This document shows, in pieces, positions 29,724 through 56,667 of a stretch of 59,679 bases of DNA. The stretch lies in NCBI GenBank assembly GCA_010093815.1, contig ML996586.1, one strand, 5' to 3'. Each line of letters starts with the position of its first letter. The first letter of the stretch is position 1. The translations under genes and the position numbers were made by a program. This DNA is from Pseudovirgaria hyperparasitica (Eukaryota). Below the pieces are notes generated by a model. That model ran no database searches. It worked only from the letters and a program-made list of their open reading frames with translations, and had not been told where the DNA came from.

Positions 29724-32100
29724 AGATACCTAAATTTAAGAAAATCCGCTACTACCCTTAGTAGCTTTATATATAACGCTTAGCTAGGCGCGGGTTTATA
29801 TCTTTATAGATACTATAGCGTGGTTAACCTACTACTAAACTAATATTAGGAAGTTCCTTAGCGGGCGTGATATACTTTATAGTCCCCTTAGAGCGACCTT
29901 ATTACTTAGCTAATAGCTTAGTAACCTTAATATCTTAATTATTATCCTAGTTAACTTATAGTATCTTACTAGTAGGTAGTATACTAGTTAGTTTATATAA
30001 AGTTATTATAGTCTTATCTTACGCGCTATTAGAGTTATTATCTAGAAAAACTAGCTTTATAACCTTTTAGTACATCTTATAATATAATAGTCTATTTAGT
30101 AGTAGTTTAGTAAGATAAGGTTTATACTACTTATAACTATAAGTAGCTATAGTAGTATTCTTAAGTCTAAAGCTATAATAGTAGTAGATATCCTAGTAGT
30201 ATTTAACTATTTACTTTAGTATTAACTCCTTAGTATAGAGCTTATATTTAGTATTATAGGCCCGATTTAGGTACTTCTATATATACTCACTAATTTTATT
30301 ATTAAATAACCTTATAGCATACTTACCATACTTATAAATTAACTTTATAGACTTAAGAAGGTTAACTACCTCCCCTAGAGGCCCTAGTTACTTAATTAGC
30401 TTATCTATTTAGTATAAGTACTATTCTAGTTCTCTATAGTTAGCTAGAGAATAAGCTAACTTACTTAGGCTAGGTAGGAGACCTAGGTAGTTAACCGAAT
30501 TAGGCTACTTAGGCTTTTATTAAAATAACTAAGATAACATTTTTAAGATAGTTAAGGTCATCTTTATAAATAGACGGGGCTATACTATAGTAAAATCACT
30601 ATTAATTTCTTCCTTATCTAACAAGATAACAAGTCATTCCTTTATAAGCTTAGATTAGATAATATAAGGGTCCTTCTTAATAGACAGTTTTTTAAAAACT
30701 AGACTTTCTATAACTACTCTATTAAGACTCTATATCTTTTTAGTAGTAATTACTTTCTACTAAAAGTCCTAGAATAATATAATATATATATCTAGGTTAC
30801 TCTTAACTTTAAAAGAGTCTTTAATTATTAAAATAGTATACTTAAATATAGATTACTTATATCTATTTTCGACTAAGTTAATACCTTTATTACTAATAAG
30901 TTTATAAAGAGTTTTAGCTTACTTAAGGAGTATTACACGTAGATTATTTCTAGTAGCTATTAGAACGGACGTTAAAAATTATACCTAGATAGCTACTATA
31001 GTTCTCTAGTTAACTATATTTACCTTAATAGATAAGGTTATATTATATAGCTATTAGTGGATATTAGTAAGATAGACGTCGGCCTAGATTAACTAGTTAA
31101 TAATTCTTTTAACTATGTTAAGATTATATATATAGATATCTAATATAGTTACTTTCTTATTATCTAGCTAATCTTTCTATAGAATTATAATTAGATTAAA
31201 TCTTTACGTACTAGTTTTAAAATTAATTATATAACTTAATTTAGGCGTAAATAGTAATAGATTACTAATATTTAATACTAAGTTACCCGAGTTTATTTAC
31301 TATCTACTTAACTAACTATATAGTAAGCTAAAGTCTAAATTATTAGCGGTAGTTAGTAATATAAGTAACGTAGTATATATATAATCTAATTATTATAATT
31401 AGGCTAAAATTAGATTATCTACTAGACTCTTTATAGTTAGTTATATAGCGCTTATAATCTTTAATAGTCGCTTAGCTAAAATACTACTATTATTATCTTT
31501 ATACCTATATACTAGATTAATATCTAAGGGTACCGCCTAAGTATAATAGTTAGTTTTATTTACTATAAGTAGCTTATCTTTAATTACCTAGGGCTTAGAA
31601 TAAGTCTTTTCTAGTATCTACTAATAATATAGCGGTAATATTACTACTCTACTAAGTATAAATTAATTAAAGATAATTATAACCTTATTATTTAAAACGC
31701 TAGGGGCTCCGCGCGGGAGACATCTATCCTAAAACTATTCTTCTTTTAAGAATATAGCTAGCTATTAGATACTAACCTTACCCTTTCTTATAATCTATTA
31801 CTCTATTACTATAATAATTAGTAACTTTACTTAGTCGGACGGTTAGATATTTATAGACGGCTACATTATATAGTTCTCTATAATATTAATAGAATAATCT
31901 ATATAAAATAGCTATAAATTATATTTTAATAGGTACCGTTATTTAGTTATAGAGAAATTACCTACTACTAGCCTATTACTAGAGATCTATATAGATAGAG
32001 CTAACGATAAAGGGTATTCTATTACTATATATTCTAGAAGAATTAGTAGGAAAGCTTTTAATAAGCTAGGAAAATTCTTAGAATCTACCTAGTCTACTAT
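29724..32100 (-). pseudogene. RIPed third ORF of element A1 (~790 codons, sense to gag-pol), unknown function
   Basis: One frame readable as protein in the blocks checked (32100-31680, 31200-30180, 29940-29724), with TAA/TAG stops and one TGA; abuts the LTR. Confidence 0.55.
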
Positions 32101-32354
32101 TACGTTATATAGATCTATATAGAATAGTTAGTTAGCTAGTTCGATATTTACTTATATCTAAATCTTTTCTATAGACTAATAGTAGTACTTTTTATCTACC
32201 TTTAGATATAGGCGTAGAAGGATATTAGTTAGTTTAGATTAAGTATAACTATTATAAGTCTACTACTAAATTAATATACTAGGTCTTATAAGGATAAAGC
32301 TAGTTATATATAGTAATTAGTCGATATTATAGAATATTTATAGATTAGTAACTA

Positions 32355-34973
32355 GCTACGAAGTCTTACGAACCGCGTCCACATTATTATAGCTAGGTAA
32401 TGCCTCTTCGGAGGTAGTAAGAGGTTCGGAGCGGCGTTAATGGCGACCTCGTCGTCGCTAGGTAGGTGGTTATAGAGTTTTCGCAACGCGTTACTCTATA
32501 GGGACCACACCATAATAAACTAGCTAGGATAGTATATACTTCTATTCTATTCTTAATTAACGCGTTAAGAGGAGTCTATAAGGATACCGGGATAAGAAAA
32601 CCACCTAACGCGCTACTACTATATCGAAAGTAGGCCTGAATCTACCTTACTATATAGGTAGAGAAAGCGGAAGTCCTAGTAGCGCGATAGGATACCTTAA
32701 GGCTTAAATAGCTCTAGGTGCGTAAGGATTAGCGAGAAATTACGTCGAGGGCAACTATAAACTACTACGGATAAACTTATTAAGGCTAACTCTCCTATAG
32801 TATTAAACTACGTTTATTAAGACGCCTAGCGCGACCACTAGTAGCGTAACTCTATTAAGACCTTTCGCTCGATACGGGATACCGCTTAGATCTAGGATAG
32901 ATAGAGCGGCTCCCGTATACGAGAGATATTATAGTCTACCGTAGAAGATAGGGCGCTAGTATATATAGATAATAGTATACGGACATAGATAAGAGGCGGC
33001 TATAGGGACCTATTAAAAAGTAGTAGAAATAAGTCGGGTTAGTAGATAGAGGATACTTAAGTTACCTAGGCGCGTTACGCGAGTATATATATATAGAATT
33101 TAAAGGATGCTCGCCTATAAGACATGGTCGGCCTATTATAGAGAGATCCTTATAGGTAATACGAAACCGGATAGTAGCTATACTTAAAGGCGGGGCGTGG
33201 TATATAGTAGTAACTACTAGCTCTAAGGACCTTACCCCTTTAATAGGCTCTAACCTTTAGTATATCTAGAAGTAGGCGGGATTACGTCCTAGCCGGGGAG
33301 ACTACTATATAGCCCGAGAGAACGGATACGTATATTAATTTATAAAGAGATAGAACGTGTCGCTAGGCATGTACGCTAGTAACATGAGTTTAAGGAGTAA
33401 ACCTCGTAGTTTCCTAGCTAGATAAGGCGTTATACCCCTCTTCTAGTAGAGCCGGAGGTATAAGCCTAAAGGGGATAAGATAAGGCGAAAACAGGAGTAG
33501 GGTCTAATAGTATAGGGCACGTCGAACCTATAGAAGTCATCTGACTTCGAACTAGAGGACTAACTCATGCACTTTATTAACCGCTATAGGAAATAGGCTA
33601 CTAGGGAAGGCGAGCGACGCCCTAGAATAGACGCCTTCGACAAACCGCCGATATAAAGTATACGCGCACTTAGCGTTATAATCGATAATAAGCTTAAATA
33701 GAGACCATAGATAGCATACGCCGTTTCTAGGGCCCTCTAGGTAGAAGCCGCCATACGCCGGATTTCGGCCTCTATATAGGGAACCGCCCGGGATAAGGCA
33801 CGCTAACTATATGTCTCTATAGCACGACTAGCCTTTATATACGGACACGAGTACTAGTATACGGCCCTTATATAGGCTAGGCGAACGAAGCTCGAATCTA
33901 TATAAAACCGTATACTCCGTCTTATCTCTAGTGAATATAAAGCTACTACTATAGCGCTACTACGACGCGAGATAAATATAATAAGTATATAGGACTTCTA
34001 CTAGATATAGAGGGTAGTATACTTTACTAAATAATAAGTATAGAAACGTATAGGAAATATAGAATATACCTTCGCCGCGCTACGCGCGCGAGTTAGCGTA
34101 TACTACTAAGTACTCTTATATATAGGCTGGACTTAACTACGGTATAAGTACTCGATAGAAATAGACTCGAACTAAGTAGTATAAGAGATTAAGAATAACC
34201 TAGATACCCTCCTAGACTAATAGAGCCTTCGAGAGCTCGGACGAAGCATATAGTTATAGATCTAAGATAAGTAGAAAGAGATACTCCGGGCCTAGTAGGC
34301 CTCCTAGTAGAATAGATATCTAGAGTAGATCTAAGGACCATAGAAGGAGCCGAGTAAATAGATATATAAAGGGCTTATAAAGGCCTAGGTATCTATACTC
34401 CTCTAAGCCCAAACGGGCGCTATAGAACTTCTATACTACCTCTATAAGAGAGGCGTCCCTAACGTATCTCTATAGTATAAGGCGTATGGCCGGAGAGGTA
34501 TAATACGCTACTATCTCATAATATACCCCAATCTTCATACGTAAAGGTAGAAGCTCATCTATACGATAAGAACCTCCGATATCGTACGATGGCTTAATAA
34601 GTACCCTAAGGACATCGCCCGGTAGATAATTATATATCTACTACTCCTCTAATTCTAGTAGACCTAGAAATATATACCGGAAGAAACCCGGTATATATTA
34701 GAGGAAACCTAGTATATGCCGGAAGAACCCCTTAACTAATAACCTCCGCACCTATACGTGCTACCTAAGGGTAAAATAACGGTAACATAGGCTATAGGCT
34801 AATAGGTGTACCCTATAGCTATATACTTAAGAAGAAATAAAGGTTTAACGAGATGTAATTATCGATATAAGGAAGTTTTCCCCTCTTAGGTTTCTTCTTA
34901 TATAGTAGCTTAGACTAGAGGAGGCATAGGCCTATAGAGTACTACTCTACCTAGTTATATAATATTATTATTA
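32355..34973 (+). mobile_element. LINE (Tad1-like)-derived insertion, 2.6 kb, 17-bp TSD, (ATT)n tail
   Basis: TTATAGATTAGTAACTA at 32338-32354 and 34974-34990; tail aatattattattatta. LINE ORF2 C-terminal motifs RALSVIIDNKLK*R, LYVSIARLAFIYG, KA*VSILL*AQTG and a RIPed CCHC knuckle. Confidence 0.88.
32400..34739 (+). pseudogene. Single ~780-codon RIPed ORF: HMG-box-like N-terminus fused to LINE thumb/C-terminal zinc knuckle
   Basis: One frame from ATG 32400 to TAA 34737-34739. IRKPPNALLLYRK...EVLVAR*...VRKD*REI at 32592-32745. LINE similarity starts only at ~33540. Confidence 0.6.
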
Positions 34974-37900
34974 TTATAGATTAGTAACTATAAATAGTAG
35001 GCCGTATAGTTAGCTTAACTATAGTACTTATTTTTAGTTAATAGATCTAGATCTAGTACTAATCTTTAAGTAAATAATATAAGGAAGTACTTAATAGTTC
35101 TATATCTATAAAATACTTTAGTAAATATATATATTATAACGCTACTTATTATAATAGATATTAATAGCTCTCTACCTATAACGGCTAGGGGCGGATAGAT
35201 ATTATAACTTTAAGTAGTTATCGACCTAGCTAGGCTCCTAGTAGACTATTTCTATAAGCTTATCTAAGGTTATATTCCTTAACTAAGTCTAATAGGAGTA
35301 TACTTTGCCGGATCTACTAACTAAATTCTAGACTATTACTATATACTATTACCTAGTATTTAATAGTTAGTTTATAGTTACGCCTAATTTAAATATAGCG
35401 CTAATTATAGATAGCTATTACTATCTACTTATTTATAATAGTAAGTAGGTATATATCTTCTCTATAGTTAAAGTAGTTAAGTTCCTTTAGAAATGGTTCT
35501 AACTATTTAATAGATATTACTAGGTATATTTTCTACATCTCCAGTAGCTCTAGTTCATACATCTAACGGCCTACCACGCATTTAATTAGTACCAGTCCGA
35601 CTCACTATTAGCTAAGCTTATAATAAGCGCCTAGAATCTTATACCCTTTATATAGTTAAATATAGACCTAGTTACTAGGAGCGAGGTCTAGTAGAGACGT
35701 ATAGCGCCTATTAAAGCGCTCCTTTATATACGTCTAGGTAAATACTAGCGTGTCTAACGTCTCTTTCTAGTTTATATTATACTTTCGGGTGTAATTATTT
35801 ACTTCTATTAAACTAGTCTCCTTAAATAGAGTACCTTTAGATAGTTAGAAGCTATATACTATCTTATTTAGAGATTTTTATATTAAGATATTTATTATAT
35901 TATTTATAAGCCGCTAGACTAATAGAATATAGATTATCTAACCTATAGCCAGTAATATTAAAATAAGAAAATATAGGGTAATCTCTACCGTTTAGTTTAT
36001 ATATTCGCTTTAACTATTACTCTATTTATAATAAGTAGTTAATACTAGGATTTTAGTACTAATACCCTCGAAAATTCCTTTCTAAAATAATAATAGGAAT
36101 TTTCGGTCCCTATTATAAATAATTATAGCTAGGACTCCCTATTCTAGTAGTATACTCCTCCTAAATATAGTTACCTATTATATAGTAGTCTAGTCGTTCC
36201 GGCCTAGAATAAAGTAGATTTACTTAGTAAACTTATCTATTATAGTAAGTAGCGCGTTAAGTCTATTCTATATTAGTAGTCTAATAATAAAGTCTATTAT
36301 AACTATATAAAATAGTATTAGCGGTAACTAGACTAGCTTTAATTTACTATATAGTATATATCTTTATATCTAGTAAGTTTTATAGATAGGATAGTACTAA
36401 ATATAGTACTTTAGGCGCTTTATAAGCCGATAAATAAAGTAGCCTATATGAATTTAATTATATACTTAGAAAAAACCCATATAAGTGCTTTTATCATAGA
36501 ATTAAGTAAACATATCTCTATTAAGTAATTTTAGTATATAGATCTAATATTATCTATTAAGCTAATTAATATAATAAATTATACTATTAGTAAATTAAAA
36601 AGGAATTAGTTAGGTAATATTATTATTCTAGTCTAGTACTATAGCTTTTATACTTATCTAGTACTTATTATTATTATATATATTAGCTAGCTAGCTCATG
36701 AATTTTAGGTTAATCTTAACTATTATAATATTAAATATTAAGAGCTTCTTAAAGACGTCTAAGTCTCTTAGCTAGACTCTATTATAGATCTAACGGAGCT
36801 AGGAAAGAGCGTTAGATACTACGTGCTCTTTACCTAGTCTATATTTAAGCTCTAGGTTAAACTATAATAGATACTATAAGGCCCGTACTAGTTAGAGATT
36901 TAGCTTATTAACTAATAAGCTTATAAGCGCCGTTTATTAAATAATACTTAGCGTGGCTACGTGGTTAGTAATAATAATTATTAGTTAGTCTAAACCATTA
37001 ACTATATAGCGTATTTAGCGTATAGTCTATACGACTACTACTACTTCTAGCTCTATTAGCTAGTACCGTAACTCGGCTATAGAGAGTTCTTTACTAAGGT
37101 ATAGAATAGGCTTAATATCTAATTATCTAATCTTTATAATATTACCCGCTTCTCCTTTAATATAGTAAGTAAAGACTCTAAAGCTATACTTTAATACGTT
37201 AATATCTATATAGAGCCGTTATTTTAGATTATAGTAGATAAGCTTAGTCTCGTCTATAAAGGCGGCCTAAATACCCTTCTATAATACTAATAGCTAGTCT
37301 ATTCGAGTAATCTTTATTTATTTATAGTATACTATATATATATCCTACTAAAGGTACTTCTTTAAGAAGACGCGTTTTCTCTATCTATAGATTCTAGATA
37401 AGGTAAGTATAATATAGCACGTATTACTATAACTAACTAGTTAGTCTAAGGTAGTATTTAAGCTTATTAAGCGTTTTAGGATACTAGAGATTATATATAG
37501 CTACTAATTTCTTAGCTATAGTAGAGAGTCTATAAGCGTTAATCTTCTAACTAAGTAGGGTAATAGATAGGTATTCTAAGTAATACTTTTTACCTTTAAG
37601 TGTTAGGTTTCTCGCTTATAGTATAATAAATACCTACTAAAGGTAGTTAAGATAATCGTTAAGTTCCTTACTAAATATAGGAATATTATTAATATATACT
37701 ATGGTAAACGCCTTATATCTAGTATTATATAAGATCTTATTAATCTACCTCTATATATATAGTAGAGAGTTATAGAAACCTATTAGAATAACGTTTAACT
37801 ACTTCTAGCCCTAGTATAATATAAACGTTAGTTTATAATAGTCTTCCTTAGCGACCGGCCACTAGTAGAAGAAGCTAGCTATATTAATAATAGATATAAA

Positions 37901-39139
37901 CTTCTTTCCGGCCGTATATTAGATAATATCGCCCTAGAGTAGTAACGGGTAGAAGTTCTTAATACTAATTTTATTTAGGCCTCTTATATCCCTAACTATC
38001 TAACTAGCGTCCTTATATAATATCTAGGTAAATAACTTTACTATAGAGTATATAATAAATATTAGAAAACTAAACGGTATTAACTATATTAGATATTCTA
38101 TATAACCTTATATATAAAGCTTATTATATACCTTATTAATAATAGCCTTACCGCTTACCCCTAATAGGTAGATATAGTAGCTTAGCTTTATACTAGCTAT
38201 TTTCTAGTTACTTACTAGGGGAATATATATCTAGTCTTTCTCTAGGATATTTATAAGTCTAGTATTATAAAATAAGTTAGTATAACTTTAGATAATATTA
38301 TTAAACTTCTAGGTAGTTACTTTATCTTTAGTATAAATTTTTATACTAAACGCGCCTATCTATTTAACTTTATTAAGCTAAGTAAGCTTTATAGATAATC
38401 CCTCTATACCGTCTAAAGGGACTACTTTAGCCTAAAATATATAGAGGGCGTCTATTTTATCTATTAATATACTAAGTCTTATATTTTTATTTATACGTAC
38501 CGATCTAAATCCACGGTTTATAATAAATATATATACTATATTTTAGTTAGTAAGATATATATAGATACCTCCGCTCTAACTAAGCCTTATACTTATATAT
38601 ATTAGGGTGAATATATAATCTTCTACGGCTAACTTATACTAGTAATAGATTATAATCGGGACTAGCGTAAGTATTTATAGCTAGAGAATAGTATACTATA
38701 AAATAGTTACTCTCTAGTATACTACTAGTTAAATAATAGTAGTAAAGGTTAGTATAGTAATCCCGCTATATATACTAATAGTTATAATGGATGTAACTAA
38801 GGTGTTACTACAATGGTAATTAGAATATATTATAATTTAACTTAGAGAGAGTGGGGTAGCTCGTATAGGTTATAGCTTAAGTATAGTCTTAAGCGAGGTC
38901 ACGTGATACCCCTATACTAGTCTCTATCTATCCCGGCTCCGTTATATAACGCTAGAGATAAGGTAAAGCCGAAGTCCATAATATACCCTTATTCTCCAGG
39001 GTTATCTTAGGGACCGGCTTGGTATTTTATGTAATAATAACCGGCTCGGTTAGGTCTTAGGTTTACGGTCTTCATATCGTACTATATAATAGTAGTAGGG
39101 CTATATATTACGTCCGGTAAGGTGGCTATATCCTATAGT

Positions 39140-39680
39140 CGCGTCTCGGTCGCGTAATAGAGGAGGGTTCCTCTATAATAGCGTTGTTAGTTATATAATT
39201 ATATAGTAGTAGTACCTCGTGGTTATATTCTAGCGGTTACATGGCGGAGGAAGGTTCCTTATATCACGGCGTCGTTAGTTATATAATCGTATGGTAGTAG
39301 CATCTTATGGTTACGTCCTAGCGGTCACGTGGTAGAGGAGGGTTCCTTACCTCACGGCGTCGTTAGTTATATAATCGCACTATAGTAGTATCTTATGGTC
39401 GCGTCCTAGCGGTTACGTAGCGGAGGTAGATTCCTTATACCACGGCGTCGTTAGTCATGTAGTCGCATAGTAGTAGCATCTTATAGTCGCGTTCTAGCGG
39501 TCACGTGGCGGAGGTAGGGTATCCTACGCATGAACCGCGCGTCTTATTTATTATTACCTATTTTAGGACCGGTTCTTCTCTAGGCTAGGGGTTAGGTAGT
39601 AGTAGTAGGGTAGCTTACGCACGACCCGCGTTTATTACTATTATTATCTATTTTAGAACCGGCTCTACCCCGGTCTACAC
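39140..39680. repeat. Tandem arrays inside C1: ~4.5 x 88 bp followed by 2 x ~90 bp
   Basis: g(g/a)ttcc anchors at 39166, 39253, 39341 and 39429; second unit (acgcacgacccgcg..ttttaggaccgg) at ~39526 and ~39617. Confidence 0.9.
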
Positions 39681-39828
39681 GATTTTCCCTAACGCGAGTA
39701 TATAGGTCCTACGTCTAGCGACTTTCTTCTTCTTTAACTACTATTACGCCTACTATCTCGATACCGTGTAGTAGCTACTATAATATTAGTAAACTCGCAT
39801 ACCACCTCGTAGCTTCTATACTATTATT

Positions 39829-41303
39829 ATAAGCGTGCTAGGCCTAAATAGGCCTATTATAGAAGCCGGCGCCGTCTTAGCGGTAGCTATAGGTGCTAGG
39901 GGTTAAGACCCTAACGATCGACGCGCGCCTAGGCGCTAGGAACCGCCTAACCGTACCATGAGTGGGTCCTATCTCTACGCCGTTCCTTATGCTAACTAGG
40001 TAGATTATTTCTTCTACCGCCTCCTAATAGGCTAAGCCTATTTACTATATAGGGCTATATATTATAGAGGGTAACTCGTTAGAAGACGAGCGTACCGAGT
40101 CCGTGTACTTTATATATCGTATATATATGAAGGCCCTAGAGAAGACTAGGGTACTTAAGTACGTGCTATCTCTACGCTATAGTAGCGCCTACTAATCTAG
40201 AGCGTAGCTATAAGCCTAGCCGCGGCACTAACTATATAAAGTGCTATACGTCGAAAGGGACCTACTTATAGAATACCGAGGAGCTTACCACGTACCCGGC
40301 CCTATGTAAGATATAGAGCCGCCTCGAGAAGTTCGTGTACGAGTCGGTTAATAATAACTTTAGTTATATAATAGACCGTGGTAGTCGCGGCCTAGACCCG
40401 ACTAAGCCTTCGTCCGGTAAGTGGCCGTGTATAAACTCTAAGTTCCACTACCTATATAAGGACTATAAGTCTAACTTAGAGATTACGTATATCGCCCGCC
40501 GTAACGCTAGTATTATTAGTTAGGTCCCTATAACGCCTAATCGCGGTACTATCACGGTAATTAAGACGCTATATCGTGGTAGTAGTAACCGTAGGCAGCT
40601 TAGTAGTGTAATTCACTAGATAAATTAGTATATATCGCATAATAAGGCCTAAATGGGCGAGTTACGCACTAACATTAGCGCCCTATAGATATATACTTAG
40701 TTAGCCTAATTACTACTATCTTAACACGTGACGTAGGGTTCGATATAGTAGGTCGCTTCCGGCCTAGTACGCCTAGCCGAGCCGCCGCCTTACTAACTCT
40801 TTATCTAGGCGGTTATAGAGGAGGAGAAGCCTCGTTTAAGTAGTAGTCGCCCACGCTACCCTCGGCTAAGCGGCCCTAAGAAGTTACCTACCCGTAGCCC
40901 GCGCTATCGCTATACTACCCCCCACCGGCTCCCTATTACTCCCCCCCCGTGGGAGGCCTCGCTATTACCACGCCGTCTCTATACCCCGCCCCGCCGCCAC
41001 GATCTATCCCGGCGCCGCTCTCGCTCGCCGGAGCGCCGTAGCCGGTCCCCCGACCGCCGTGACCGGTCCCCTTACTACTATAACCGGTCCCCTCGCTACC
41101 GTGACCGTTTCTATAAGTGTTACCGCCGATTCCGTAACCGCTGGCGTTATACTATTAAGGGTCGTCGCTTATCGCGTTATTACCGGTCGCCGTCTCGTAG
41201 CCGCCATAGCCGCCCCGATAAGGTGTATAACTCCCCCTTACCGCTAAGCTAGATTAATAGTTACCCCCGCCGCTAGGAGCCGGCCTAGGGGAGGACTAGG
41301 TGA
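39829..41303 (+). pseudogene. RIPed antisense 3-exon cargo gene of C1 (~459 aa): putative Cys6 zinc-cluster-like motif and RS-rich tail
   Basis: Introns 39958-40003 ((g)tgagt..gctaac..tag) and 40159-40207 (gtacgt..tactaat..tag) join three different frames into 460 codons ending TGA 41301-41303. Tail reads RRRSRSPERRSRSPDRRDRSP. Confidence 0.75.
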
Positions 41304-44300
41304 CTAACCTTATAGTTAGGATTTACGGTTAAGGACCGTGCCGGCCCTAGCGCCGTGTAGACCTAGGGTAGGGCTAGAAGAATAACCTTTTCATGTCTTA
41401 AGGAGAGTATCGGTTTATTATTAGGTTACTTAGGTACTTAGTATTTAGCGTTTAGTCTTTATAGAATCTCTACTCTTATATTAGGTTATTAGGGCTACTA
41501 TAGGCCCGTAATAGTAGATTAATATCTTTATTTAGGGATGCGCTAAAGTCGTAGGCCGTTATATAATCACGCGCTACTATACCGGGCCTTAAACCTATCT
41601 AGTACCTTAGTATCCTCTACGTCCTTAAGTAGTACCTATATTAGCTATAGCTAGCCCTTCCATTTTACGAGTACTTACCTCTTATTTCGCCTACGTGCGT
41701 TTTTTGCCCGAAGGATGTCCTCGACCTTATATTTAGTAATGTCCTTATCGGCTTCGTTAAGTTCGAGTACCGGGCCTAGGCGAGTATCTAGCTACTCCTA
41801 GCTAGGTAGGGGGTCCTCTACGGCGCGCTCGACTAGACTAACATAGACTATCTTATAAAGGTCCCCGGGGAGGTCGAGGGTTACTATTAGGGGGGTAGAT
41901 TAGGCGAGAACCCTATACTTAGTCTATAGCTAGTCGAGTTTCCGGCTCGGGCGATTAGTCTTTACGTTTCGGAGTAAGAACTATACTATATTACTAACCT
42001 TAAAGCGTTTAGCTAGACGGCGTGACCGGTTAGCCGAGTCCTAGGAACGTTACTCGGCCTAGACGATAGCCGCCTACGCTAGGGTAGTGCCGTTATAGAG
42101 GTGCTTAAGGAAGTTTATAGCCCGGCCTTTCGCTAAGGTTATGGAGGTGTTAGGGAGTAGCCGTCGCGGTAATAGTTTAATATAGTATCCATTTAGAAGT
42201 AGGTTCGGCGCTATACCGGTTACTAATAAGGTACGGTTATTTAGGGCGAGCTAGCATGCCGGTAGGCACTCTAGCTAATTAGTTTACTTAAAGGTTACTA
42301 TAACGCGAAGTACCGCCTAGACCTCCTAGTTTACTCGCTCTATACTACCGTCGGTCTATGGGTAGTAGGCCGTAGAGAGGTCCTAGTATACGTCCGTTAT
42401 AGAGTAAAGGGTTATCTAGAACTACCCTAGCTAGTCCGAGCCCCGGTCGGTAATAATAGACTATAGAAACCCCCGGAAACGCTACTATGTGTTATAGAAT
42501 CGCGCCGCGTAGTCCTTAGCCGCCATAGAGATTATCGCCTCTAGCTAGATAAATTTTAAGAGCCGATCCGTAATAACGAGTAGGTACCGGGGCCGTAATG
42601 GGTCCGATTAGGGGAGGTCGGTTATAAAGTCTATAGAAATCTAGGACTAGAAATAGTCTAGTATCGGAAGTAGCTAGAGGAGCCTAGGGGCCTTACGCCG
42701 ATTTATATAAGCTCCGTAGTAGTTATAGTTCTACATAAATCGCCGGATATTAGTCTATATACGCTTCTAGTAGTATTCCCGCCGGATAGCTACGTACGTC
42801 TTATTCTTACTAGGGTAGCCCGTAAGGGGGGAAGCATAGGACCTCTAGATAATAGTTATTATAAGCGGTTTCTATTCGGGCACCTAGATAACTCCCCGCT
42901 ACGTAAGTATCCTATATACTAATATAGTATAGTCCGTAATCTATTTAGTCGTAAGCGCCTCCGGTAGAAAGAGGTGTACCCCGTCTACTACGGCCGTATA
43001 GCGGATCTAATACGCCGGGACGGACTAAGCGGCTTAGTCCTAAAGCTCCTAGAGGTAGGGATTAGTAAAGATGCTTCGTCCCTATAGAAGGCGATCCTCT
43101 CCGGAGTAGATGCTTATAGGTACTATTTAGATAGCTCGTGGGGCTATAAGCTACCCCCATAGGAGGGACTTCTTAGATAAGTCCTAGTTACGGCGGCTAA
43201 GGGCGTCCGGGCGAGCCGCCTAGAATCCCGGCCGGTATACTAGGTTATAGTTAAAGAGTATAAGCTAGTCGGACTATCGCTACTACCGCGGGACGAGAAG
43301 GTAAGACTTAGTAAAGTACTCGAGGTTCTTATAGTCTATATAGATCGTGAAAGGGCGGTAAACGCTCCGAAGCTCGGGTTCCCACGCCTAGAGGTACTAA
43401 ACCACGGTAAGGAGCTCCTTATTATAGATTATATAGTTCTATTAGACGGCTATAAGGGCCGTAGAGTAGTAGACTATCGGGTGCTAAATACCCCGAACCC
43501 TCTAGGATAGGTACCCGCCCGTCGCGTGGCTAGAGTAATCTATCTCGACTATTATATCGCGTGTCTCGTTCTAGGATTAGAGAATAGATCCTATAATAAA
43601 AGTATTCTTAAGCTTAGTAAACGCGCGGTCCTTGGTTAGGCCCTAGTAGAAGGCCGCCCCGGCCCTAGTAAGGGCGTAGAGCGGGGCCGCTATAGTAGAG
43701 AAGTCGGGAAGAAAGTTACGGTAGAAGTTTATAAATCTAATAAATTACTAGACGCCCTAGACCGTGGTCGGGGGCTCCTAGTCCCGGATCGTGGTGATTT
43801 TCTCCGGGTCGGGGCGGATTAATTTACTAGCGGTAATAACGTACCCTAGATACCGGACTTCCTTAGTAGCGAAGCGGCACTTAGTAAGGTTATAGTAAAG
43901 GTCCGCTTTAGTAAGGAGAGATAGAATAGTCTTTACGGCGGCCTAGTGGTCCTCTAGCGTACCTAGGGTGTAGATAAGGATATTATTAAGATACGCTATA
44001 TAGGTTACCCCTAGGACCCCACTTAGTACCCCATTAATATAGCGCTAGAAGGAGGCTAGAGCACTAGAGAGACTAAACGGAAGCACGGTCTATTTAAAGA
44101 GGCCGAACCGGGTATAGAAAGCCGTCTTATGTTCGTCGCCGGCGGCCACCCGTAGTTTATAGAATGCCGCCCGAATATCGACCTTACTAAACCATAACGC
44201 GTTACTAATAGTATATAGGGTTTCGCGTATTAGAGGAAGCGGGTATCAATCCTACTCCGTAATACCGTTAAGGGCTCTATAGTTAATATATAGCCGCTAT

Positions 44301-46847
44301 TTCCCTCCCGGCTTAGGGACGAGTAATACTAGCGCCCTAGCCGTAGAGGAGCTAGCCCGTATCTAACCCTTATCTATAAGATCCGTAAGCTGGCGGCGTA
44401 GCTCTACTAGCTACTCCCGAGATATAGCGTAGAGGGGTCCCTAAGGGAGGTTTACTAGGGTCCCTACCGGGGTGGACTTAATATGGATATAGTAGTCGGT
44501 ACTCCCCCGGTAGGGGGGTAGCGCCGACGCCTTTACCTTATTAAAGAGATCGCGGTAGGCGTATAGCTTTAATAGGAGCGGGCGCCTATCCTCCGTGAGC
44601 TCGGACGTGTCCTAGTCGGGTATTAGAGGTGGCGGGGGGAGTATAAGCTATAGAAGGCGGGTGACGTCGCGGATGCTAGTAGCGACCACCCGTCCACGGC
44701 GATAAGCCGTCTCTAGAGCCTCTATAATGCGACCCTTCTCGGTAAGTACCCGAATGCGCGTTAGGCGCATATAGGTATTTATATTCTAGGCTACGAGGCC
44801 GTGGGCGCGGTAGAGCGTAATCTCGTCTACCCGTATATTAATAACGGCGCCGGCCTAGTAGAGCCATAGGCTCCCGAGGATAAGGTCCCGGTCTAGCCTA
44901 GATACTATATAGGCGGAGAGGCGCTATCTCTATCCGGCGATATCGTACTATATAGTAACGACTTCCATGATCTCCGGTCCCGACGCTCTATTAGCGGTAA
45001 GAGCCACTTAACGACGTGGGACTAAGATACGCGACTTAGCCACGTCCCCCGTAAGGGATAGGCTAACTACCGCGAAATACTTATACCCTATATCTACTAA
45101 GGCGTCTATATACTTCCTATTCTAGAGGAATAGCGATATAACGGGTGGCGGCCCGTCTATAACCCGAGCGGGTGCGCTATCCTCTAGATTAGAGCCGTGA
45201 TCTTAGTTACCCGTGGCTTCGTTCCCTACTAAATATTATAACGTCCCCTAACCCGGGCTATAGTAAGGGACTATACTTTCCCCGCCTTAGAGTCGGAATT
45301 AGTATCGTCCTAGGCCGGGGCCGCGACCTTAAGCGCCCGTATATTAACGGCGTTTAGGTAGCCCCGTTATTAGTGGCTAGCCTAGCCGCACCGGGTATAC
45401 ACGCCCGCCGTGCGGTGCTCCTAGAATAAATCCTTCGGAATCCACGAAGGAGGCTCTTTCTTCTTAACCCCGTTCTTACTCTTCGCCGCCGGTAAGATAG
45501 CTCGCTCCTTACCCTTTATCTTAACGGCCTTAATAGTAACCGCTAACATCGTCGTATCGCTATCCTTATCCTTACCCGGCTTACTTTAGGGCGCCGTGTT
45601 TTACCTAGTACGGAGCCGGAATAACTCTATATCCATGCCGATATTCCTAAGGCGGCCTATAGCGGCCTCGTATTAGTCCGGGAGGCCCCGGTTTAGGGCT
45701 ACTACCCGGGTCCCCTAGTTAAGGCCGTCCCGGAGCCGTATAAGCTTCTAGTCGTCGGCCTAGTATATCCCCCTAGCCTTCTAGAGGGCGGTATAGAACC
45801 GGACGAAGTAATCTATAAACGGCTCCTTAGCCTTTTATATAATTATATTTAGCCGTTAAAGGGCCCGCTCTTTAGCATATATATCTCTAAACTAGAACTT
45901 AAGGTAGTCTAGGAACGCGTGTAGGTCCTAGTTACCGTTTAGCCCCCTAGTAGAATATACCGCGCTAACCCCCTTCTATACCTTAGGCGCTAGGTTAGCC
46001 TAGATAAGGGCTATCTAGTCTCTATAGGTGCCGATAAACTCGGCGTCCCGGGTAATCTTATACCGTATTATAACGGACCACGTACGGAAGAGAGCCTTAG
46101 ACCCGTTATATAGATCGCCGAGGGGGAGAGGCTTCCGTTTCATAGGCCGGTCGAGTATAATATACGGGGCCGATAGTAGTAAAGTAGGGGCGCGTGTAGG
46201 TAGGGCCGGGTTAGGCCCGTATAGGCGCTAAGGTATAGCTAAGGAGGGGTCGGGCTAGGGTAGGGACGAATCCCTATAGGTTAACGTAGTAGGAGTACGG
46301 CTATATACTTCGACCATAACTAGGCGGGCGTCGATGCGCTATAGCGCCGTATAGACGCTCTGCTTAATATCGGATATATAAGACTCGCTTACCGCTTAGG
46401 CGGCCGTGATAGACTTATATACGGCCTATATTTTATCTCGGAAGCTAAGGAAGGAGTTAGAGAGTTACCGCATTAGATTAGAGTCTTACGGGTTAAGACT
46501 ATCTTATGCTATAAGGCCACGTATAGGAAGAGGTTAATAAAGTTAAATTAATATAATAGATGTGACCAAGGTGTTACTATAATAGTAATTAGGATATATT
46601 ATAATTTAACTTAGAGAGAGTAGGGGTGGCTCGTATGGGTTATAGCTTAAGTATAGTCTTAAGCGAGGTTACGTGATACCCCTATACTAGTCTCTATCCG
46701 TCCCGGCTCCGTTATATAACGCTAGAGACAAGGCAAAGCCGAAGTCCATAACAATAGTTATTATATATATACTTATATAGATATATATCTTCTAAGATAC
46801 TATAATATCTATTCTAAGAAGGAGACCTACCTATAGATAGTTAAGGA

Positions 46848-47717
46848 NNNNNNNNNNNNNNNNNNNNNNNNNNNNNNNNNNNNNNNNNNNNNNNNNNNNN
46901 NNNNNNNNNNNNNNNNNNNNNNNNNNNNNNNNNNNNNNNNNNNNNNNNNNNNNNNNNNNNNNNNNNNNNNNNNNNNNNNNNNNNNNNNNNNNNNNNNNNN
47001 NNNNNNNNNNNNNNNNNNNNNNNNNNNNNNNNNNNNNNNNNNNNNNNNNNNNNNNNNNNNNNNNNNNNNNNNNNNNNNNNNNNNNNNNNNNNNNNNNNNN
47101 NNNNNNNNNNNNNNNNNNNNNNNNNNNNNNNNNNNNNNNNNNNNNNNNNNNNNNNNNNNNNNNNNNNNNNNNNNNNNNNNNNNNNNNNNNNNNNNNNNNN
47201 NNNNNNNNNNNNNNNNNNNNNNNNNNNNNNNNNNNNNNNNNNNNNNNNNNNNNNNNNNNNNNNNNNNNNNNNNNNNNNNNNNNNNNNNNNNNNNNNNNNN
47301 NNNNNNNNNNNNNNNNNNNNNNNNNNNNNNNNNNNNNNNNNNNNNNNNNNNNNNNNNNNNNNNNNNNNNNNNNNNNNNNNNNNNNNNNNNNNNNNNNNNN
47401 NNNNNNNNNNNNNNNNNNNNNNNNNNNNNNNNNNNNNNNNNNNNNNNNNNNNNNNNNNNNNNNNNNNNNNNNNNNNNNNNNNNNNNNNNNNNNNNNNNNN
47501 NNNNNNNNNNNNNNNNNNNNNNNNNNNNNNNNNNNNNNNNNNNNNNNNNNNNNNNNNNNNNNNNNNNNNNNNNNNNNNNNNNNNNNNNNNNNNNNNNNNN
47601 NNNNNNNNNNNNNNNNNNNNNNNNNNNNNNNNNNNNNNNNNNNNNNNNNNNNNNNNNNNNNNNNNNNNNNNNNNNNNNNNNNNNNNNNNNNNNNNNNNNN
47701 NNNNNNNNNNNNNNNNN
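46848..47717. other. Assembly gap within A1 gag-pol
   Basis: 870 N; the flanks correspond to A2 positions 58746 and 59558 (811 bp in between). Confidence 1.
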
Positions 47718-47789
47718 TATTCTAGAACTAGTAGAATAATCTATAGAAGCGCTAGTTATAGCTAGTAGCTAACGTGCGTTAGCTAATAC

Positions 47790-50700
47790 TATAATAGATA
47801 TAACTAAGGTGTTACTACAATGGTAATTAAGATATATTATAATTTAACTTAGAGAGAGTAGGGATAAGCCGTATAGTTATAGCTTTAAGTATAGTCTTAA
47901 GCGAGGTCACGTGATACCCCTATACTAGTCTCTATCCGTCCCGGCTCCATTATATAATACTAGAGATAAGGTAAAGCTAAAGTCTATAATATACCCTTAT
48001 TCTCTAGGATCGTCCTAGGGACCGGCTTAGTATTTTATATAATAATAACTAGCTTAGTTAGGTCTTAGGTTTACGGTCTTTATATTATACTATATAATAA
48101 CTATAGGGCTATATATTCCTTCTAGTAAGGTAGTAGCTTTTTATAGTAGTATTCTAGCGGTTACATAGTAGAGGTAGATTCCTTATACCACGGCGTCGTA
48201 GATTATTAGGTCGCACTATAGTAGTATATTATAGTTATATCCTAGCGGTTACGTAGCGGAGGTAGATTCCTTATATTATAGCGTTATAGATTATATAATT
48301 ATAAGATAGTAGAATCTTATAGTTACGTTATAGCGGTTATTAGCGGAGATAGACTTCTTATATTACGGCGTACCGCGTCGGGTTATATAAAGGTAGAGTA
48401 GTCTACGCACGAACCGCGCGTCCCGTTTTATTATTATCCGTTTTAGGACTAGCTCCTCTCCGGGCTAGGGGTTATATAGTAGTAGTAGAGTAGCTTATAT
48501 ACGACCCGCGTTTATTATTATTATCGTCTATCTTAAGACTAGCTCTTCTCCGGGTTAGAGGTTATATAGTAGTAGTAGAGTAGCTTACGCACGACCCGTG
48601 TTTATTATTATTATCGTCTATTTTAGGACCGGCTCTACCCCGGCCTATACGATTTTCTCTAACGCAAGTATATAGGTCCTACGCCTAGCGACTTTCTTCT
48701 TTCTTAACTACCCTTACGCCTACTATCTTAATACCACGTAGTAGCTACTATAATATTAGTAAACTTATATACTACCTCGTAGCTTCTATACTATTATTAT
48801 AAGCGCTCTAGGCCTAAATAGTCCTATTATAGAAGCCGGCGCCGTCTTGGCGGTAGCTATAGATACTAGAGGTTAAGACCCTAATAATTATCGCGCGCCT
48901 AGGCGCTAGGAACTAGTCGATCGCACCGTAAGTAGGTTCTATCCCTACGCCGTTCCTTATACTAACTAGATAGACTATTTCTTCTACCGTACCCCGATAG
49001 ACTAAGTCTATTTACTATATAGAGCTATATATTATAGAGAGTAACTTATTAGAAGACGAGCGTACTAAGTCCGTATACTTTATATATCGTATATATATAA
49101 AGGCCCTAGAGAAAACTAGGATGCTTAGATATATACCGTCTCTACGCCGTAGCGGCGCCTACTAATCTTAGAGTATAGCTATAAGCCTAGCTATAGTACT
49201 AACTATATAAAGTACTATATATTAAAGGGGACCTACTTATAGAATACTAAGGAGCTTACTACGTACCCGGCCTTATATAAGGTGTAGAGTTATCTTAAAA
49301 AGTTTATACACGAGTCGGTTAATAATAACTTTAGCTATATAACGGACTATAGTAGTCGCGGCCTAGACCTAATAAAGTCTTCGTCCGGTAAGTAGCCGCG
49401 TATAAACTCTAAGTTCTACCGCCTATATAAGGACTATAAGTCTAACTTAGAGATTATCTATATCGCGCGATATAACGCTAGTATTATTAGTTAGGCTTCT
49501 ATAACGCCTTATCGTGGCGCTATAATATTATTTAAGCCGCCGTATTATAGTAGTAGTAACTATAGCTAGATTAGTAGCGTGATTTACTAGATAAATTAGT
49601 ATATATCCTATAATAAGGTCTAGATAGGTAAGCTATGTACTAGTATCGGCACCTTATAGATATATAAGCTTTATAAGTCTAAATACCTATTCTAACGCGT
49701 GACGTAGGGTACTATATAGTAAGTCGTGTCTAGGTTAGCCTACCTAGCGGAGCTACTATCTTACTATCTTATTACTTAGATAGTTATAGAGGATAAGAAG
49801 CCCTTATTAGATAGTAGCCGCTTACGCTAACCCCGGTCTATAGACTATAGAGAGTCGCTAACTTAGAGCTCTCGCTATCGCCCTATTAGGCCTCTCCGGC
49901 TCTCTATCGCCGCCCCTCCTTATAAGTTCTTACTATCTTATTATTAGCTCTAGACTTCTTCTCGCTACTATAACCGCTTCTAGTTCTATAAGCGTTATAG
50001 CCGGTCCCCCGCCTACTATAATTAGTCTCCCTACTATTATAACTAGTTATATAACTATTATAACCGGTTATATAACTATTACCGTCGCTCGGGTAGCTAT
50101 TAGTACTATTTCTATAAGGATTATTAAGTATCGCGCCGCTATTAGTTACTGGCCCGCCTCTACTATAACTCTCCCGTAGATAAGTACGACTTGCCCTCGC
50201 TACCCGCCTAGATTAATAGCCGCTACCGCTATTAGGAGACGGCCTAGGGGAGGACTAGGTAACTAACCTTATATTAGGATTTATAGATAAGGATAGTACC
50301 GGCCCTAGCGCCGTATAAATCTAGGATAGAGCTAGATAAATAATCTTTTTATATCTTAAGGCGGGTATTAGTTTATTATTAGGTTATACTAGATACTAGC
50401 GTTTAGCGTTTATTTCTTTCTTTTCTAAAATCTCTACTCTTATATTAGGTTATCGGGGCCGCTATAGGCCTATAATAGTAGAGTAATATTACTACTTAGG
50501 GATGCGTTAGAGTCGTAGGCCGTTATATAATTAAGCGTCGCTATATCTAGACTCGAACTAGTCTAGCGCCTCGGTATCTTCTACGTCCTTAAGTAGAATC
50601 TATATTAGTTATAACTAACCTTTCTACTTTATAAGTACCTATTACTTATTCCGTCTCTATATATTTTTTATATATAGAATATCCTTAATCTTATACTCCG

Positions 50701-53700
50701 CGACGTCCTCGTCTACTTTATTAAGCTTAAGTACTAGGCCTAGGCGGGTATTAAGCCGCTCTTAGCTAGGTAGGGGGTCCTCTACGGCGCGCTTAATAAG
50801 GCTTATATAGACTATTTTATAAAGGTCTCCGGGGAGGTCGAGGGTTACTATTAAGGGGGTAGATTAGACTATAACCCGGTATTTTATCTATAGCTAGTTA
50901 AGCTTCCGGCTTAGGCGGTTAGTCTTTATATTCTAGAGGGAGAACTATACTATATTACTAACCTTAAAACGCTCGGCCGGGCGTCGTAACCGGTTTACTA
51001 AGTCTTAGGAGCGCTACTCGGCCTAGATAATAGCCGCTTAAGCTAAGGTAGTGCCGTTCTAAAGGTATTTAAGGAAATTTATAGCCTAACCTTTCGCTAA
51101 GGTTATAGAGGCGTTAGAGAGTAGCTACTATAGTAATAGTTTAACGTAGTATCCGTTTAGAAGTAAGTTTAGCGCTATACTAGTTACTAATAAGGTATAG
51201 TTATTAAGGGCGAGCTAACATGCCGGGAGATATTCCGGCTAGTTAGTTTACTTAAAAGTTACTATAACGCGTAATACGGCCTACACCTTCTAGTTTATAT
51301 ACTTAGTACCGCTATCTATCTACGGGTAGTAGGCCGTAGAGAGGTTCTAGTATATATCTATTATAGAGTAGAGGGTTATCTAGAACTACCTAAGCTAGTC
51401 TAAGCCCTAGTCTGTAATTATTAACTAGGGGAACCCCCGGAAATACTATTACGTATTATAGAACCGTATAGCGTAGTCCTCGGCTACTATAGAGATTATC
51501 GCCTCTAGCTAAATAAACTTTAAGAGTCGGTCCGTAATAATAAGAAGATATTAGGGCTAGAACGGGTCTAATTAGGGGAGGTTAGTTATAAAATCTATAG
51601 AAATTTAGAACTAGAACTAGTCTAGCGTCGGAAGAGGCTAGAGGAGGCTAGAGGCCTTATATTAGTTTATATAGGCTCTATAGTAGTTATAGTTTCGTAC
51701 GAACTACCGGATATTAGTCTATATCCGCTTCTAGTAGTACTCCCGCTAAATAGCTATATAAGTCTTATTCTTACTAGGATAGCCCACGAGGGGAGAGATA
51801 TAGAACTTCTAGATAATAGTTATAGTAAGGGGTTTCTACTTAGGTACCTAAATAACCCCCCGCTATATTAGTATTCTATATACTAATATAGCGTAGTCTA
51901 TAATCTATTTAGTAGTAAGCGCCTCTAGTAGAAAGAGGCGTACTCCGCCTACTACGGCCCTATAGCGGGCCTAGTATACTAGGACTAACCGAATAGCCTA
52001 GTCCTAGAGCTCCTAGAGGTAGAGGTCGATAAAGATACTTTATCCCTAGGGGAGATAGGACTCCCCGGAGCGGGTACTTACTAGTACTATTCTAATGGCC
52101 CGTAGAGTTATAAGCTGTCCCCTTAGAAGGGACTTTTTAGATAAGTTCTAGTTATAGTAGCTTAGGGTATCCGGACGGGCCGCCTAGAATCCTAGCTAGT
52201 ATATAAGATTATAGTTAAATAGTATAAGCTAGTCGGACTATTATTACTACTATAGGATAAGAAGGTAAGACTTAGTAAAGTACTCGAGGTTTTTATAGTC
52301 TATATAGACTATAAAGGGGCGGTAGACGCTTCGGAGCTTAGGTTTCTACGTCTAGAGGTACTAAACTACTATAAGGAGCTCCTTATTATAGATTATATAG
52401 TTCCGCTAAGCGGCCGTAAGGGCCATAGAATAGTAGACTACCGGGTGCTAAATACCCCGAACCTTTTAGAATAGATATCTACCCGTTATATATCCGGAGT
52501 AATCTATCTCGACTATTATATCGCGTATCTTATTCTAGGACTAGAGGATTAGCCTAGTAATAAAAGCGTTCTTTAGCGTATTAAACGCGCGGTCCTTAGC
52601 CGGGCCCTAGTAGAAGGCTATCCCGGCCTTAGTAAGGGCGTAGAGTAGGGCCGCTATAGTAGAGAAGTTAGAGAGAAAGTTATAGTAGAAGTTTACGAAC
52701 CTAATAAACCGCTAGACACCCTAGACCGTGGTCGGGGGCTTCTAGTCCTAGATAGCGGTAATCTTCTCCGGGTTAGGGCGGATTAACTCTCTAGCGGTAA
52801 TAATATAACCTAGGTACCGGACCTCCTTAGTAGCGAAACGGTATTTAGTAAGGTTATAGTAAAGGTCCGCCTTTATAAGGAGAGATAGAATAGTTTTTAT
52901 AGCGGCCTAGTAGTCTTCTAACGTACCCGGAGTGTATATAAGAATATTATCGAGATACGCTATATAGGTAACCCTAAGGACCCCGCTTAGTACCCCGTTA
53001 ATATAGTATTAGAAGGAGATAGAGGCGCTAGAGAGACTAAAAGAGAGAACTATCTATTTAAAGAGGCCGAACCGGGTACGGAAGGCCATCTTATATTTAT
53101 CCCTGGTAGCGACCTATAGTTTATAGAATACCGCCTAGATATCTACCTTACTAAACCACGATATATTACTAATAGTATATAGAGTCTTACGTATAAGTAG
53201 TAGCGGATATCGGTCCTATTTAGTAATACTATTAAGGGCTCTATAGTTAATATATAGCCGCTACTTCCCTCCTGGCTTAGAGATAAGAAGTACTAGCGCC
53301 CCGGCCGCTAAGGAGCTAGCCTATATCTATCTCTTATCTATAAGATTCGTAAGCTAGCGGCGGAGCTCTATAAGTTATTCCCGAGATATAGTATAGAGGG
53401 GTCCCTAGGGGAGGTTTATAGGGGTTCCCGCCGGTATAGACTTAATATAGATATAGTAGTCGGTGTTCCCTCTATAGGGAGATAGCACTAACGCCTTTTC
53501 CTTATTAAAGAGATTACGGTAGGCGTATAGCGTTAATAGAAGCGGGCGCCTATCCTCTATAAGCTTAGTCGCGTTCTAGTTAGATACTAGAGGTAACTAG
53601 AGGAGTATAAGTTATAGAAGGCGGGTAACGTTACGGATACTAGTAGTAACTACTTATCTATAGCGGTAAGCTATCTCTAGACCCCTAAGAATACGGCCCT

Positions 53701-55896: not shown

Positions 55897-56667
55897 AATA
55901 CCTTTTAACCGCCTTTATCTAAATCTTCTAATTCTTATTAGAACTACTATAGAGAGCGGGGCTAGTATAAGTTATAGTATTAATCGGGTTAATTAGTTAT
56001 AAGATAACGGCTATTAGACTAGCTCTAGTCTTAAGAGTTACTAAATAGTTAAGATAAGTTATAGTAATAAGAGCTGTTATATTAACTATCTTCTCTTTCT
56101 TATTAAGTAAATTAACTTAAAGTACTATACTATACACTACTAAGGTAATAGTAGATAAGTTAGTACTATTCTTTATATTTTACTTATAGAGTCTATATAA
56201 ATTAGACTAGAGATATAGATTCTATTAGTAGAGATAGACCCTAGTAAAGGAGAATATTAATACTATTCTATACGAACGTCTAAGTATTTTAGCTAGAAGG
56301 GCCTAATAGTTATATAGTACTATAGTCGTAAGCTATAGCGTATATATATAAAGTAACGTTAGTTTAGGAGCGGGTCTATTAGAGAGTATATCTTTATATT
56401 ATAAGGGATAATAGAGTATTAGATAATAGCTACTTAAACTACTTAATTAAGGCCGTAGTCTAGGCGTCTAAACTAGATAAGTAATAGAGCGCTTTCTTCT
56501 TAAGATCGGATAATTCTAATATAAACTACTTAAGGGTATATCCTCGTAGATACTAAGAGATTTTTAACTTAATAGTTTCGGTTCCTCTAGCTATAGTAGC
56601 GTCTTTAATCCGGTTAAGAAAGATATATACGCTATATATATACGTGTCCTAACCGGTAAAAACGACA

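Follow-up and report, generated by a model that had tools for sequence, protein, structure and literature searches.

A non-coding module with an HDV-like ribozyme fold joined to truncated LINE ends in Pseudovirgaria hyperparasitica, a probable retrocopy of two RNAs

We analyzed a 59,679-nt stretch of DNA (hereafter the window) from the fungus Pseudovirgaria hyperparasitica (contig ML996586.1 of assembly GCA_010093815.1; G000:C22:335968-395646), and searched the whole assembly, which comprises 35.4 Mb in 122 contigs and contains gaps. From about 16.5 kb onward the window is AT-rich and has strong indices of repeat-induced point mutation (RIP). In this part, on the plus strand, lies a chimeric insert with two unrelated halves. 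The 5' half (32354-33558) is a copy of subfamily A of a constant 1.2-kb non-coding module, referred to here as WEIRD-like after the 5' part of the MINE chimeras discussed below, and begins with a RIP-damaged fold similar to the hepatitis delta virus (HDV) ribozyme (32354-32428). The 3' half is the 5'-truncated end of a long interspersed nuclear element (LINE), consisting of the C-terminus of its second open reading frame (ORF2; 33559-34742) followed by the 3' untranslated region (UTR) and a (TTA)n tail (34743-34973).

The insert interrupts a decayed repeat, an uninterrupted copy of which is found at locus L025 (93% identical across the site). The 17-bp target-site duplication proposed in the original prediction is present as direct repeats at 32338-32354 and 34974-34990 (both on the plus strand), and since L025 carries the 17-bp target only once, the insertion and its duplication are confirmed. 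The first three nucleotides of the duplication overlap the tail and its last base, an A in the window, falls on the position of G1 of the ribozyme fold, so that the duplication is 16 or 17 bp long. The predicted tail of TTA/ATT type is likewise present, and the duplication, the tail and the identity of the LINE part together establish a target-primed LINE insertion. Exact duplications of 13-16 bp flank the whole chimera in 17 of the 30 copies examined; three copies have no exact one, and in 10 of the 30 the tail pattern used for scoring did not match. A second copy of the window insert with the same flanks, 99.5% identical, is located on contig C7 (L077).

The LINE itself is 5.3 kb long and has many stand-alone copies in the genome. 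One of them (L202:2390-7413, on G000:C52) is full-length, unRIPed and flanked by its own duplication, with an ORF1 of 486 aa that has a weak zf-CCHC match and an ORF2 of 925 aa that matches Exo_endo_phos_2 (E 1e-13) and RVT_1 (E 3e-33, aa 498-750); compared with L079, about 294 bp are missing from the C-terminal region of its ORF2. The features of a Tad1-type LINE are present, i.e., an ORF1 zinc knuckle and, in ORF2, an apurinic/apyrimidinic (APE) endonuclease, a reverse transcriptase (RT) and a C-terminal CCHC motif, the last as seen in L045; "Tad1" is the name given in the original prediction and does not come from an RT tree. As expected from that prediction, the sequence from 33559 on is an ORF2 C-terminus (end of the RT, thumb and CCHC knuckle). 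It is broken by RIP, matches the stand-alone LINE copies L078-L080 at 93-94% by BLASTN, and aligns by BLASTP to aa 712-923 of the unRIPed ORF2 of L202 (64% identity, E 2e-83). The CxxC-x7-H-x4-C knuckle is intact in the unRIPed LINE part of L045. Pfam and protein comparison likewise agreed with the prediction that 32355-33558 holds no RT motif. The 5' part has not replaced the RT core, however: in the window the LINE part begins downstream of the YVDD motif, at LINE nt 3861, and the RT core is absent because of this 5' truncation. Other chimeras contain the RT, with LINE parts beginning as far upstream as nt 17, and full-length LINEs, including L202, start with an A-rich 5' end and without the module. 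The LINE also contains a near-perfect palindrome of about 31 bp ahead of ORF1 (approximately LINE nt 237-268, L079 numbering) and again at the ORF2 stop (L045:2825-2856); about 33 bp of the 3' copy are missing in the window LINE part, L042 and L079.

In genome searches the two halves of the insert behave separately. The module has 42 matches, 29 of which cover it entirely, so that the element is multicopy as had been proposed, with a junction to the LINE at varying LINE positions. Its lineages differ by 3-30% within this single genome and include family A (1204 nt), family B (1186 nt) and the diverged copies L051, L052 and L199; the copies in L042 and L045 (~57% GC) are nearly free of RIP. Across 33 chimeric junctions examined, the module always stops at the same last base, while the LINE starts at 27 different points between nt 17 and nt 4968. 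These counts omit L077 as a duplicate of the window locus with its flanks, as well as L051, L052, L057, and L058, which are without the module 3' end, and the last four junction rows and the group labels of L049 and L072 were assigned by hand. Family A is joined to LINE groups I, II, and III (7, 8, and 6 copies respectively), family B to groups II and III (6 and 4), and the module of L045 to a fourth, diverged LINE; in L049 the module stands ahead of a nearly complete LINE. The LINE base at -1 is U in 18 and the base at +1 is C in 21 of the 27 sites (p ~2e-7 each), and 15 sites read exactly U|C, against a background of 4.6%. This bias is also seen with the unRIPed L202 as reference where it belongs to the right group, most other reference copies being RIPed. 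Although the module ends in GG, these bases are not microhomology, as a G precedes the join in only one of the 27 sites. Six LINE positions were used twice, and at least the four of them that were used by different module or LINE groups represent independent events because the groups differ; with a pool of usable sites limited to about 115 of U|C type, six repeats would be unremarkable (p 0.22).

No solo full-length copy of the module occurs among the 42 module matches and 33 ribozyme matches in the assembly, all 20 exact matches to the pattern of the module 3' end are chimeras, and neither a tandem copy nor a tail-to-head (3'-to-5') joint was found there. Two contig sets from one sample (X1 and X2) contain the L045 junction and copies of the L051 and L052 types, with no 3'-to-5' module joint; a single joint in them that appears to go back is an L051-type copy beside a flank paralogous to the L042 flank. 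What the 5' half of the insert copies, over its full length, is a distinct 1.2-kb non-coding RNA whose ends are fixed. Among more distant sequences, a 15-nt core pattern retrieved at least 118 metagenome stretches, of which the 80 searched by BLASTN gave no module similarity; in a scan of 205 loci with the ribozyme descriptor no metagenome locus matched, and IMG/VR held no exact match to the 26-nt ribozyme core pattern.

Some module copies and module ends have features of their own. L052:1035-2050 (G000:C22:56.8-57.8 kb) is an old, diverged module whose ribozyme is mostly deleted; it stops near an internal motif of GAGG type, similar to the usual 3' end, and the sequence after it resembles by eye the C-terminus of another LINE. 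L051:6024-7003 (G000:C36) has an intact variant ribozyme and is broken at module nt 972 by a sequence that by eye resembles a DNA-transposase fragment, about 210 bp from an empty paralogue of the L042 insertion site. The last 45 nt of the module (in L042; window 33514-33558) repeat the ribozyme pieces CACGUCG, CGAACC, and GGAGG (the last as the 3' strand of P4) and contain a small hairpin whose stem is kept and whose loop differs in the diverged L199. These repeats and the hairpin may signal the end of the module or an alternative fold, or may be due to chance.

The original prediction had assigned the 5' half a protein-coding role, in which one frame over 32400-34739 encodes an HMG-box (high-mobility-group) DNA-binding domain fused to the LINE thumb and zinc knuckle. 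The HMG-like letters GIRKPPNALLLYRK do occur in the window, with a resemblance to RPPNAFILYR, and the junction is in frame with ORF2 in this copy, which is expected by chance one time in three. The frame, however, has 84 stops in 781 codons, and in L042 and L045, the least RIPed copies, each plus-strand frame of the module has 9-17 stops per ~400 codons. There the HMG-like stretch (32589-32747, plus strand, in the window) reads GIRKP(P/S)DALLLCRKQA and is followed directly by a TGA stop; of 31 aligned copies, 30 have a stop codon right after RKQA. Of the changes that separate the window copy from L042, 183 are C>T or G>A and four are of other kinds, and RIP turned a D and a C into the N and Y of the window motif. 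Families A and B differ by 10 indels, each of a length not divisible by three. Pfam gave no match on the window frame, the three plus frames of L042 or frame 1 of L045, and a genome search with PF00505 returned nine matches, six of them over the cut-off and none on a module copy, although genuine HMG genes of this genome were detected. A join made at 27 different LINE positions also speaks against a fusion protein. These results rule out the HMG box, and an encoded fusion has next to no probability; judging from the codon comparison, the stretch is a chance resemblance sharpened by RIP, and not a gene. What stands of the original prediction is a chimeric retroposon, non-autonomous and produced by the LINE machinery, without the encoded DNA-binding domain, and the case is a caution that RIP can generate convincing protein motifs.

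The first 75 nt of the module can be folded by hand into the nested double pseudoknot of HDV-like ribozymes, with P1 GGCUGCG/CGCAGCU (7 bp), P2 CGAACC/GGUUCG, P3 GCG/CGU, P1.1 CC/GG, and a UUCG-capped P4, together with the loop L3 UCCACGU and the joining strand J4/2 GCAAGA. All pairs of the five helices form in L042, L045, L051, and L076. Pair 1 is a G-U wobble in 9 of 12 aligned rows, the other three reading A, and L3 retains the U and G of the reverse wobble; this G has been described as important in HDV-like ribozymes (PMC3774820). Across 12 copies, 95.5% of 288 pair cells are paired and seven pairs have changed on both sides; none of 500 shuffles scored as high, and registers slid along the sequence were 21-51% paired. 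L051 contributes a double transversion in P2 (C-G to A-U) and a longer, different, and still paired P4. A strict descriptor of the fold matched L042 once and none of 3000 shuffles. The catalytic C in J4/2 is kept in 10 of 31 copies and is changed to T, in a CpA context, in the other 21, including the window copy (position 32418). The 5' ends of the copies fall on G1, in agreement with the predicted cleavage site: among the 17 copies with an exact duplication, the first base is a G belonging to the element only in eight, is common to element and target in eight, and reads A in one. Structure and covariation thus support an HDV-like fold at the first base of the module. HDV-like ribozymes cut just 5' of P1 and free retroelement RNAs from co-transcripts (PMC3774820, PMC4035085), and the ribozyme predicted here would probably cut the module RNA from upstream sequence exactly at G1.

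Downstream of the ribozyme, the module appears to be kept as a structured RNA. Body pairs were predicted from L042 alone and compared with a null of matched dinucleotide context. In family B all three pairs in which both bases had changed, by transversions, remain paired (p 0.003), as do 7 of 9 doubly changed pairs in L051 (p<0.0001); in L045 both doubly changed pairs are paired, and both are common to L051. Long-range structure kept by compensatory change, which involves long helices, is thereby shown statistically in two lineages. The whole module is predicted to fold into a branched structure, 65% paired and ~2.8 standard deviations more stable than 25 shuffles, while local windows of 120 nt contain no unusually stable hairpins (z -1.9 to +0.9). 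Together with the lack of an open frame, these comparisons indicate that the module is a non-coding DNA copy of a folded 1.2-kb RNA. No tRNA-like part was found in it, and no Rfam family matched at gathering level. Two named kinds of RNA were considered and set aside: a telomerase RNA, for which L042 has by eye no sense-strand telomeric template and no Rfam match, and reverse splicing by a group I intron, which a module ending in G and a LINE U at -1 might recall, as there was no Rfam match and no shared sequence at -2 to -6.

Taken together, the insert is very likely a selfish, structured, ribozyme-headed RNA captured by LINE machinery, i.e., a MINE-type chimeric retrocopy of two RNAs. Reverse transcription at the target was primed by a 3' fragment of LINE RNA. 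In the mechanism that we propose, self-cleavage by the HDV-like ribozyme would make the 5' end of the module RNA at G1. On reaching a break or pause at U|C in its own RNA, the LINE RT would switch end-to-end to the module RNA at its 3' end and copy that RNA to G1. An RT template jump has been proposed for chimera formation in MINE (PMC2104539), and we give it somewhat better than even odds of having formed the join here. The module RNA itself may derive from read-through transcripts of earlier chimeras, which we regard as its likeliest source at a little under even odds. The module acts as a selfish hitch-hiker, with no need to encode a protein itself, and has split into several lineages in this genome.

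Several observations weigh against parts of this interpretation. RF00094 (HDV_ribozyme) is the best Rfam match on L042 and lies over the module start, with a score of 26.1 bits (E 0.35), below the gathering score of 50, and a genome-wide search with RF00094 gave no match. In J4/2, which runs C-A-A-G-A, a G takes the place of the consensus A of Rfam, a difference that may reduce activity. Most ribozyme covariation that is not due to RIP comes from the single copy L051, and pairing was scored on the same sequences from which the structure was derived. In the module body, the diverged L052 shows no significant excess of retained pairs (7 of 11 paired, against 4.3 under the null, p 0.13), many single changes break predicted pairs, and changed positions are not enriched at unpaired sites (p ~0.45-0.7); as single changes are not concentrated in loops, selection on the body seems real but loose. 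As for origin, no source locus was found in the assembly, and read-through from chimeras accounts for the 5' end of the module RNA, not for its fixed 3' end. The present data fit a template jump and RNA ligation alike.

Ligation, the main rival to the jump, concerns the joining step only and is compatible with the rest of the explanation above. Here, before reverse transcription, a host RNA ligase would link the module RNA, with a 2',3'-cyclic phosphate at its end, to LINE fragments that had been cut at U|C and carry a 5'-OH. The fixed module end and the lack of microhomology agree with it, the excess of U|C sites and their recurrence fit nuclease cuts, and RtcB joins U6 RNA with such an end to truncated L1 RNA, according to PMC6789731. 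That source also reports that no specific L1 sequence favors human U6/L1 joining, and one base pair formed by the cDNA with a terminal C of the module RNA could explain the preference for C just as well, although two sites start with A. We consider ligation the less likely route, at clearly lower probability than the template jump. Somewhat less probable still is a replicon origin, in which a viroid- or retrozyme-like RNA, circular or concatemeric, has the module as its unit-length monomer and has left only LINE-made fossils in the genome. One ribozyme cutting multimers would then give both fixed ends and a ligatable cyclic-phosphate 3' end, and such a replicon would account for the missing source gene, the escape from RIP, the several lineages, and selection on the structure of the whole RNA. 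A circular fold of the module is stabler than shuffles (-466.1 vs. -440.7 +/- 9.2 kcal/mol, n=25), and both single-ribozyme circular RNAs and fungal delta-type ribozymes are known. Circle closure adds no stability, however (-468.8 kcal/mol for the linear fold), and the fold is branched, not rod-like, with no second ribozyme on either strand; because single-ribozyme branched circles are known, this by itself is still compatible with the viroid-like class. The missing tail-to-head junction in the assembly and the missing exact IMG/VR match count against it as well, and in Magnaporthe the total WEIRD RNA appears from tables 1-2 of PMC2104539, by our own comparison of values obtained with different primers, not to exceed single MINE junction RNAs.

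A copy of a functional host non-coding RNA gene, or of a tandem array, missing from the assembly could also supply the module, and the gaps and 122 contigs leave room for one; selection on structure agrees with this, and it is the reading that the authors of PMC2104539 gave to WEIRD. We nevertheless judge it unlikely, a shade below the replicon. Every exact 3'-end match is chimeric and no solo full-length copy was found, lineages 3-30% apart in one genome resemble a mobile family, and the module has neither an Rfam family at gathering level nor a tRNA. A gene with 30 genomic copies would also be a target of RIP itself. The remaining alternative derives the module from the LINE, as its own 5' region, with the chimeras being internally deleted or 5'-inverted LINEs (by twin priming, or in the manner of short internally deleted elements, SIDEs). 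The nearly complete LINE behind the module in L049 invites it, and ribozyme-headed LINEs and SIDEs are known. Alignment in both orientations, which the original prediction had called for, gave no BLASTN match of the module to L201-L203 on either strand, and no protein similarity to RT was found, so that the module is neither inverted LINE nor, by this comparison, a degenerate RT. Full-length LINEs, including the unRIPed L202 with its duplication, start without the module, and a single module subfamily sits on three LINE groups. Inversion and internal deletion are ruled out by the module-free LINEs and the missing similarity, the module as LINE 5' UTR is refuted for the resident LINE, and the whole alternative is highly improbable; the ribozyme may have come from an extinct donor LINE. 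A strict-descriptor search of L202 gave no ribozyme in the LINE itself, and a lax descriptor gave one match in the LINE 3' UTR, with a weak P3 and no P4, which we take as false.

The surroundings of the insert in the window are repetitive. The insertion host (30300-38700, minus strand) resembles by eye the pol region of a heavily RIPed long terminal repeat (LTR) retrotransposon. Further on, 38760-55900 and 55892-58684 contain at least two related units about 9 kb apart with common terminal repeats, and a 751-bp inverted repeat (98%) lies in the same region (38760-58684), close to the contig end.

Among known systems, the closest in architecture is MINE, the WEIRD-MGL chimeras of Magnaporthe grisea (PMC2104539). 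Both systems place a full-length, non-coding 5' part of 1.1-1.2 kb on variably 5'-truncated LINE 3' ends, and both show target-site duplications, recurrent junctions without microhomology, and no solo 5' part (PMC2104539). They differ in that the present module begins with an HDV-like ribozyme and has a covarying structure, the word ribozyme being absent from the main text of PMC2104539; in the junction preference, U|C here and GCC|A/U in MINE (PMC2104539); and in that several module lineages occur on several LINE groups in the present genome. We call the element MINE-type on the basis of its architecture (a LINE-unrelated, non-coding module and duplications), a name that makes no claim to sequence homology with WEIRD or MGL. 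The R2/R1 hybrid SIDEs of Drosophila similarly have an HDV-like ribozyme at the exact 5' end, before the 3' end of another non-LTR element whose machinery moves them; they are fixed short elements, amplified as units, with a ribozyme from R2 (PMC3414825). In contrast, the present join was made anew at many points of the LINE, the ribozyme is followed by 1.1 kb of structured RNA, no donor LINE with this ribozyme was found, and the 5' end does not come from a resident autonomous element, as that of a SIDE does.

U6/L1 chimeric pseudogenes also join a full-length non-coding RNA to variably truncated LINE RNA, with duplications, and differ in that U6 is a known host small nuclear RNA from a real gene, whereas the present partner is much longer and ribozyme-headed (PMC6789731). 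The ribozymes of R2, L1Tc/NARTc, and SIDER share the double pseudoknot and cleavage at the first base of the element; they head the retrotransposon itself (PMC3774820, PMC4035085, PMC6765202), whereas the present ribozyme stands at the front of a passenger RNA, and the resident LINE has none. Viroid-like circular RNAs and retrozymes are likewise non-coding, structured, about 1 kb long, and marked at one end by a self-cleaving motif, which is predicted in our case (bioRxiv 10.1101/2022.07.19.500677); our analysis of the present module showed neither a circle or tandem copy nor a rod-like fold or an antisense ribozyme. In a literature search whose coverage was without most subscription papers and the MINE supplements, no paper tying MINE or WEIRD to a ribozyme was found.

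The 2007 paper left open what WEIRD is, an orphan 1.1-kb RNA with fixed ends for which there is no gene (PMC2104539). The element described here provides an independent fungal case, in which the passenger RNA starts at the predicted cleavage site of an HDV-like fold and its structure is under selection. The question of WEIRD thereby becomes testable through self-cleavage, the chemistry of the RNA ends, circularity, and template jump versus ligation. It is possible, at about one chance in four on our estimate put broadly, that MINE/WEIRD-type modules are LINE-made fossils of a fungal non-coding RNA replicon, joined to LINE RNA broken at U|C. If true, they would constitute an endogenous record of a viroid-like agent, which would explain the absent source gene.

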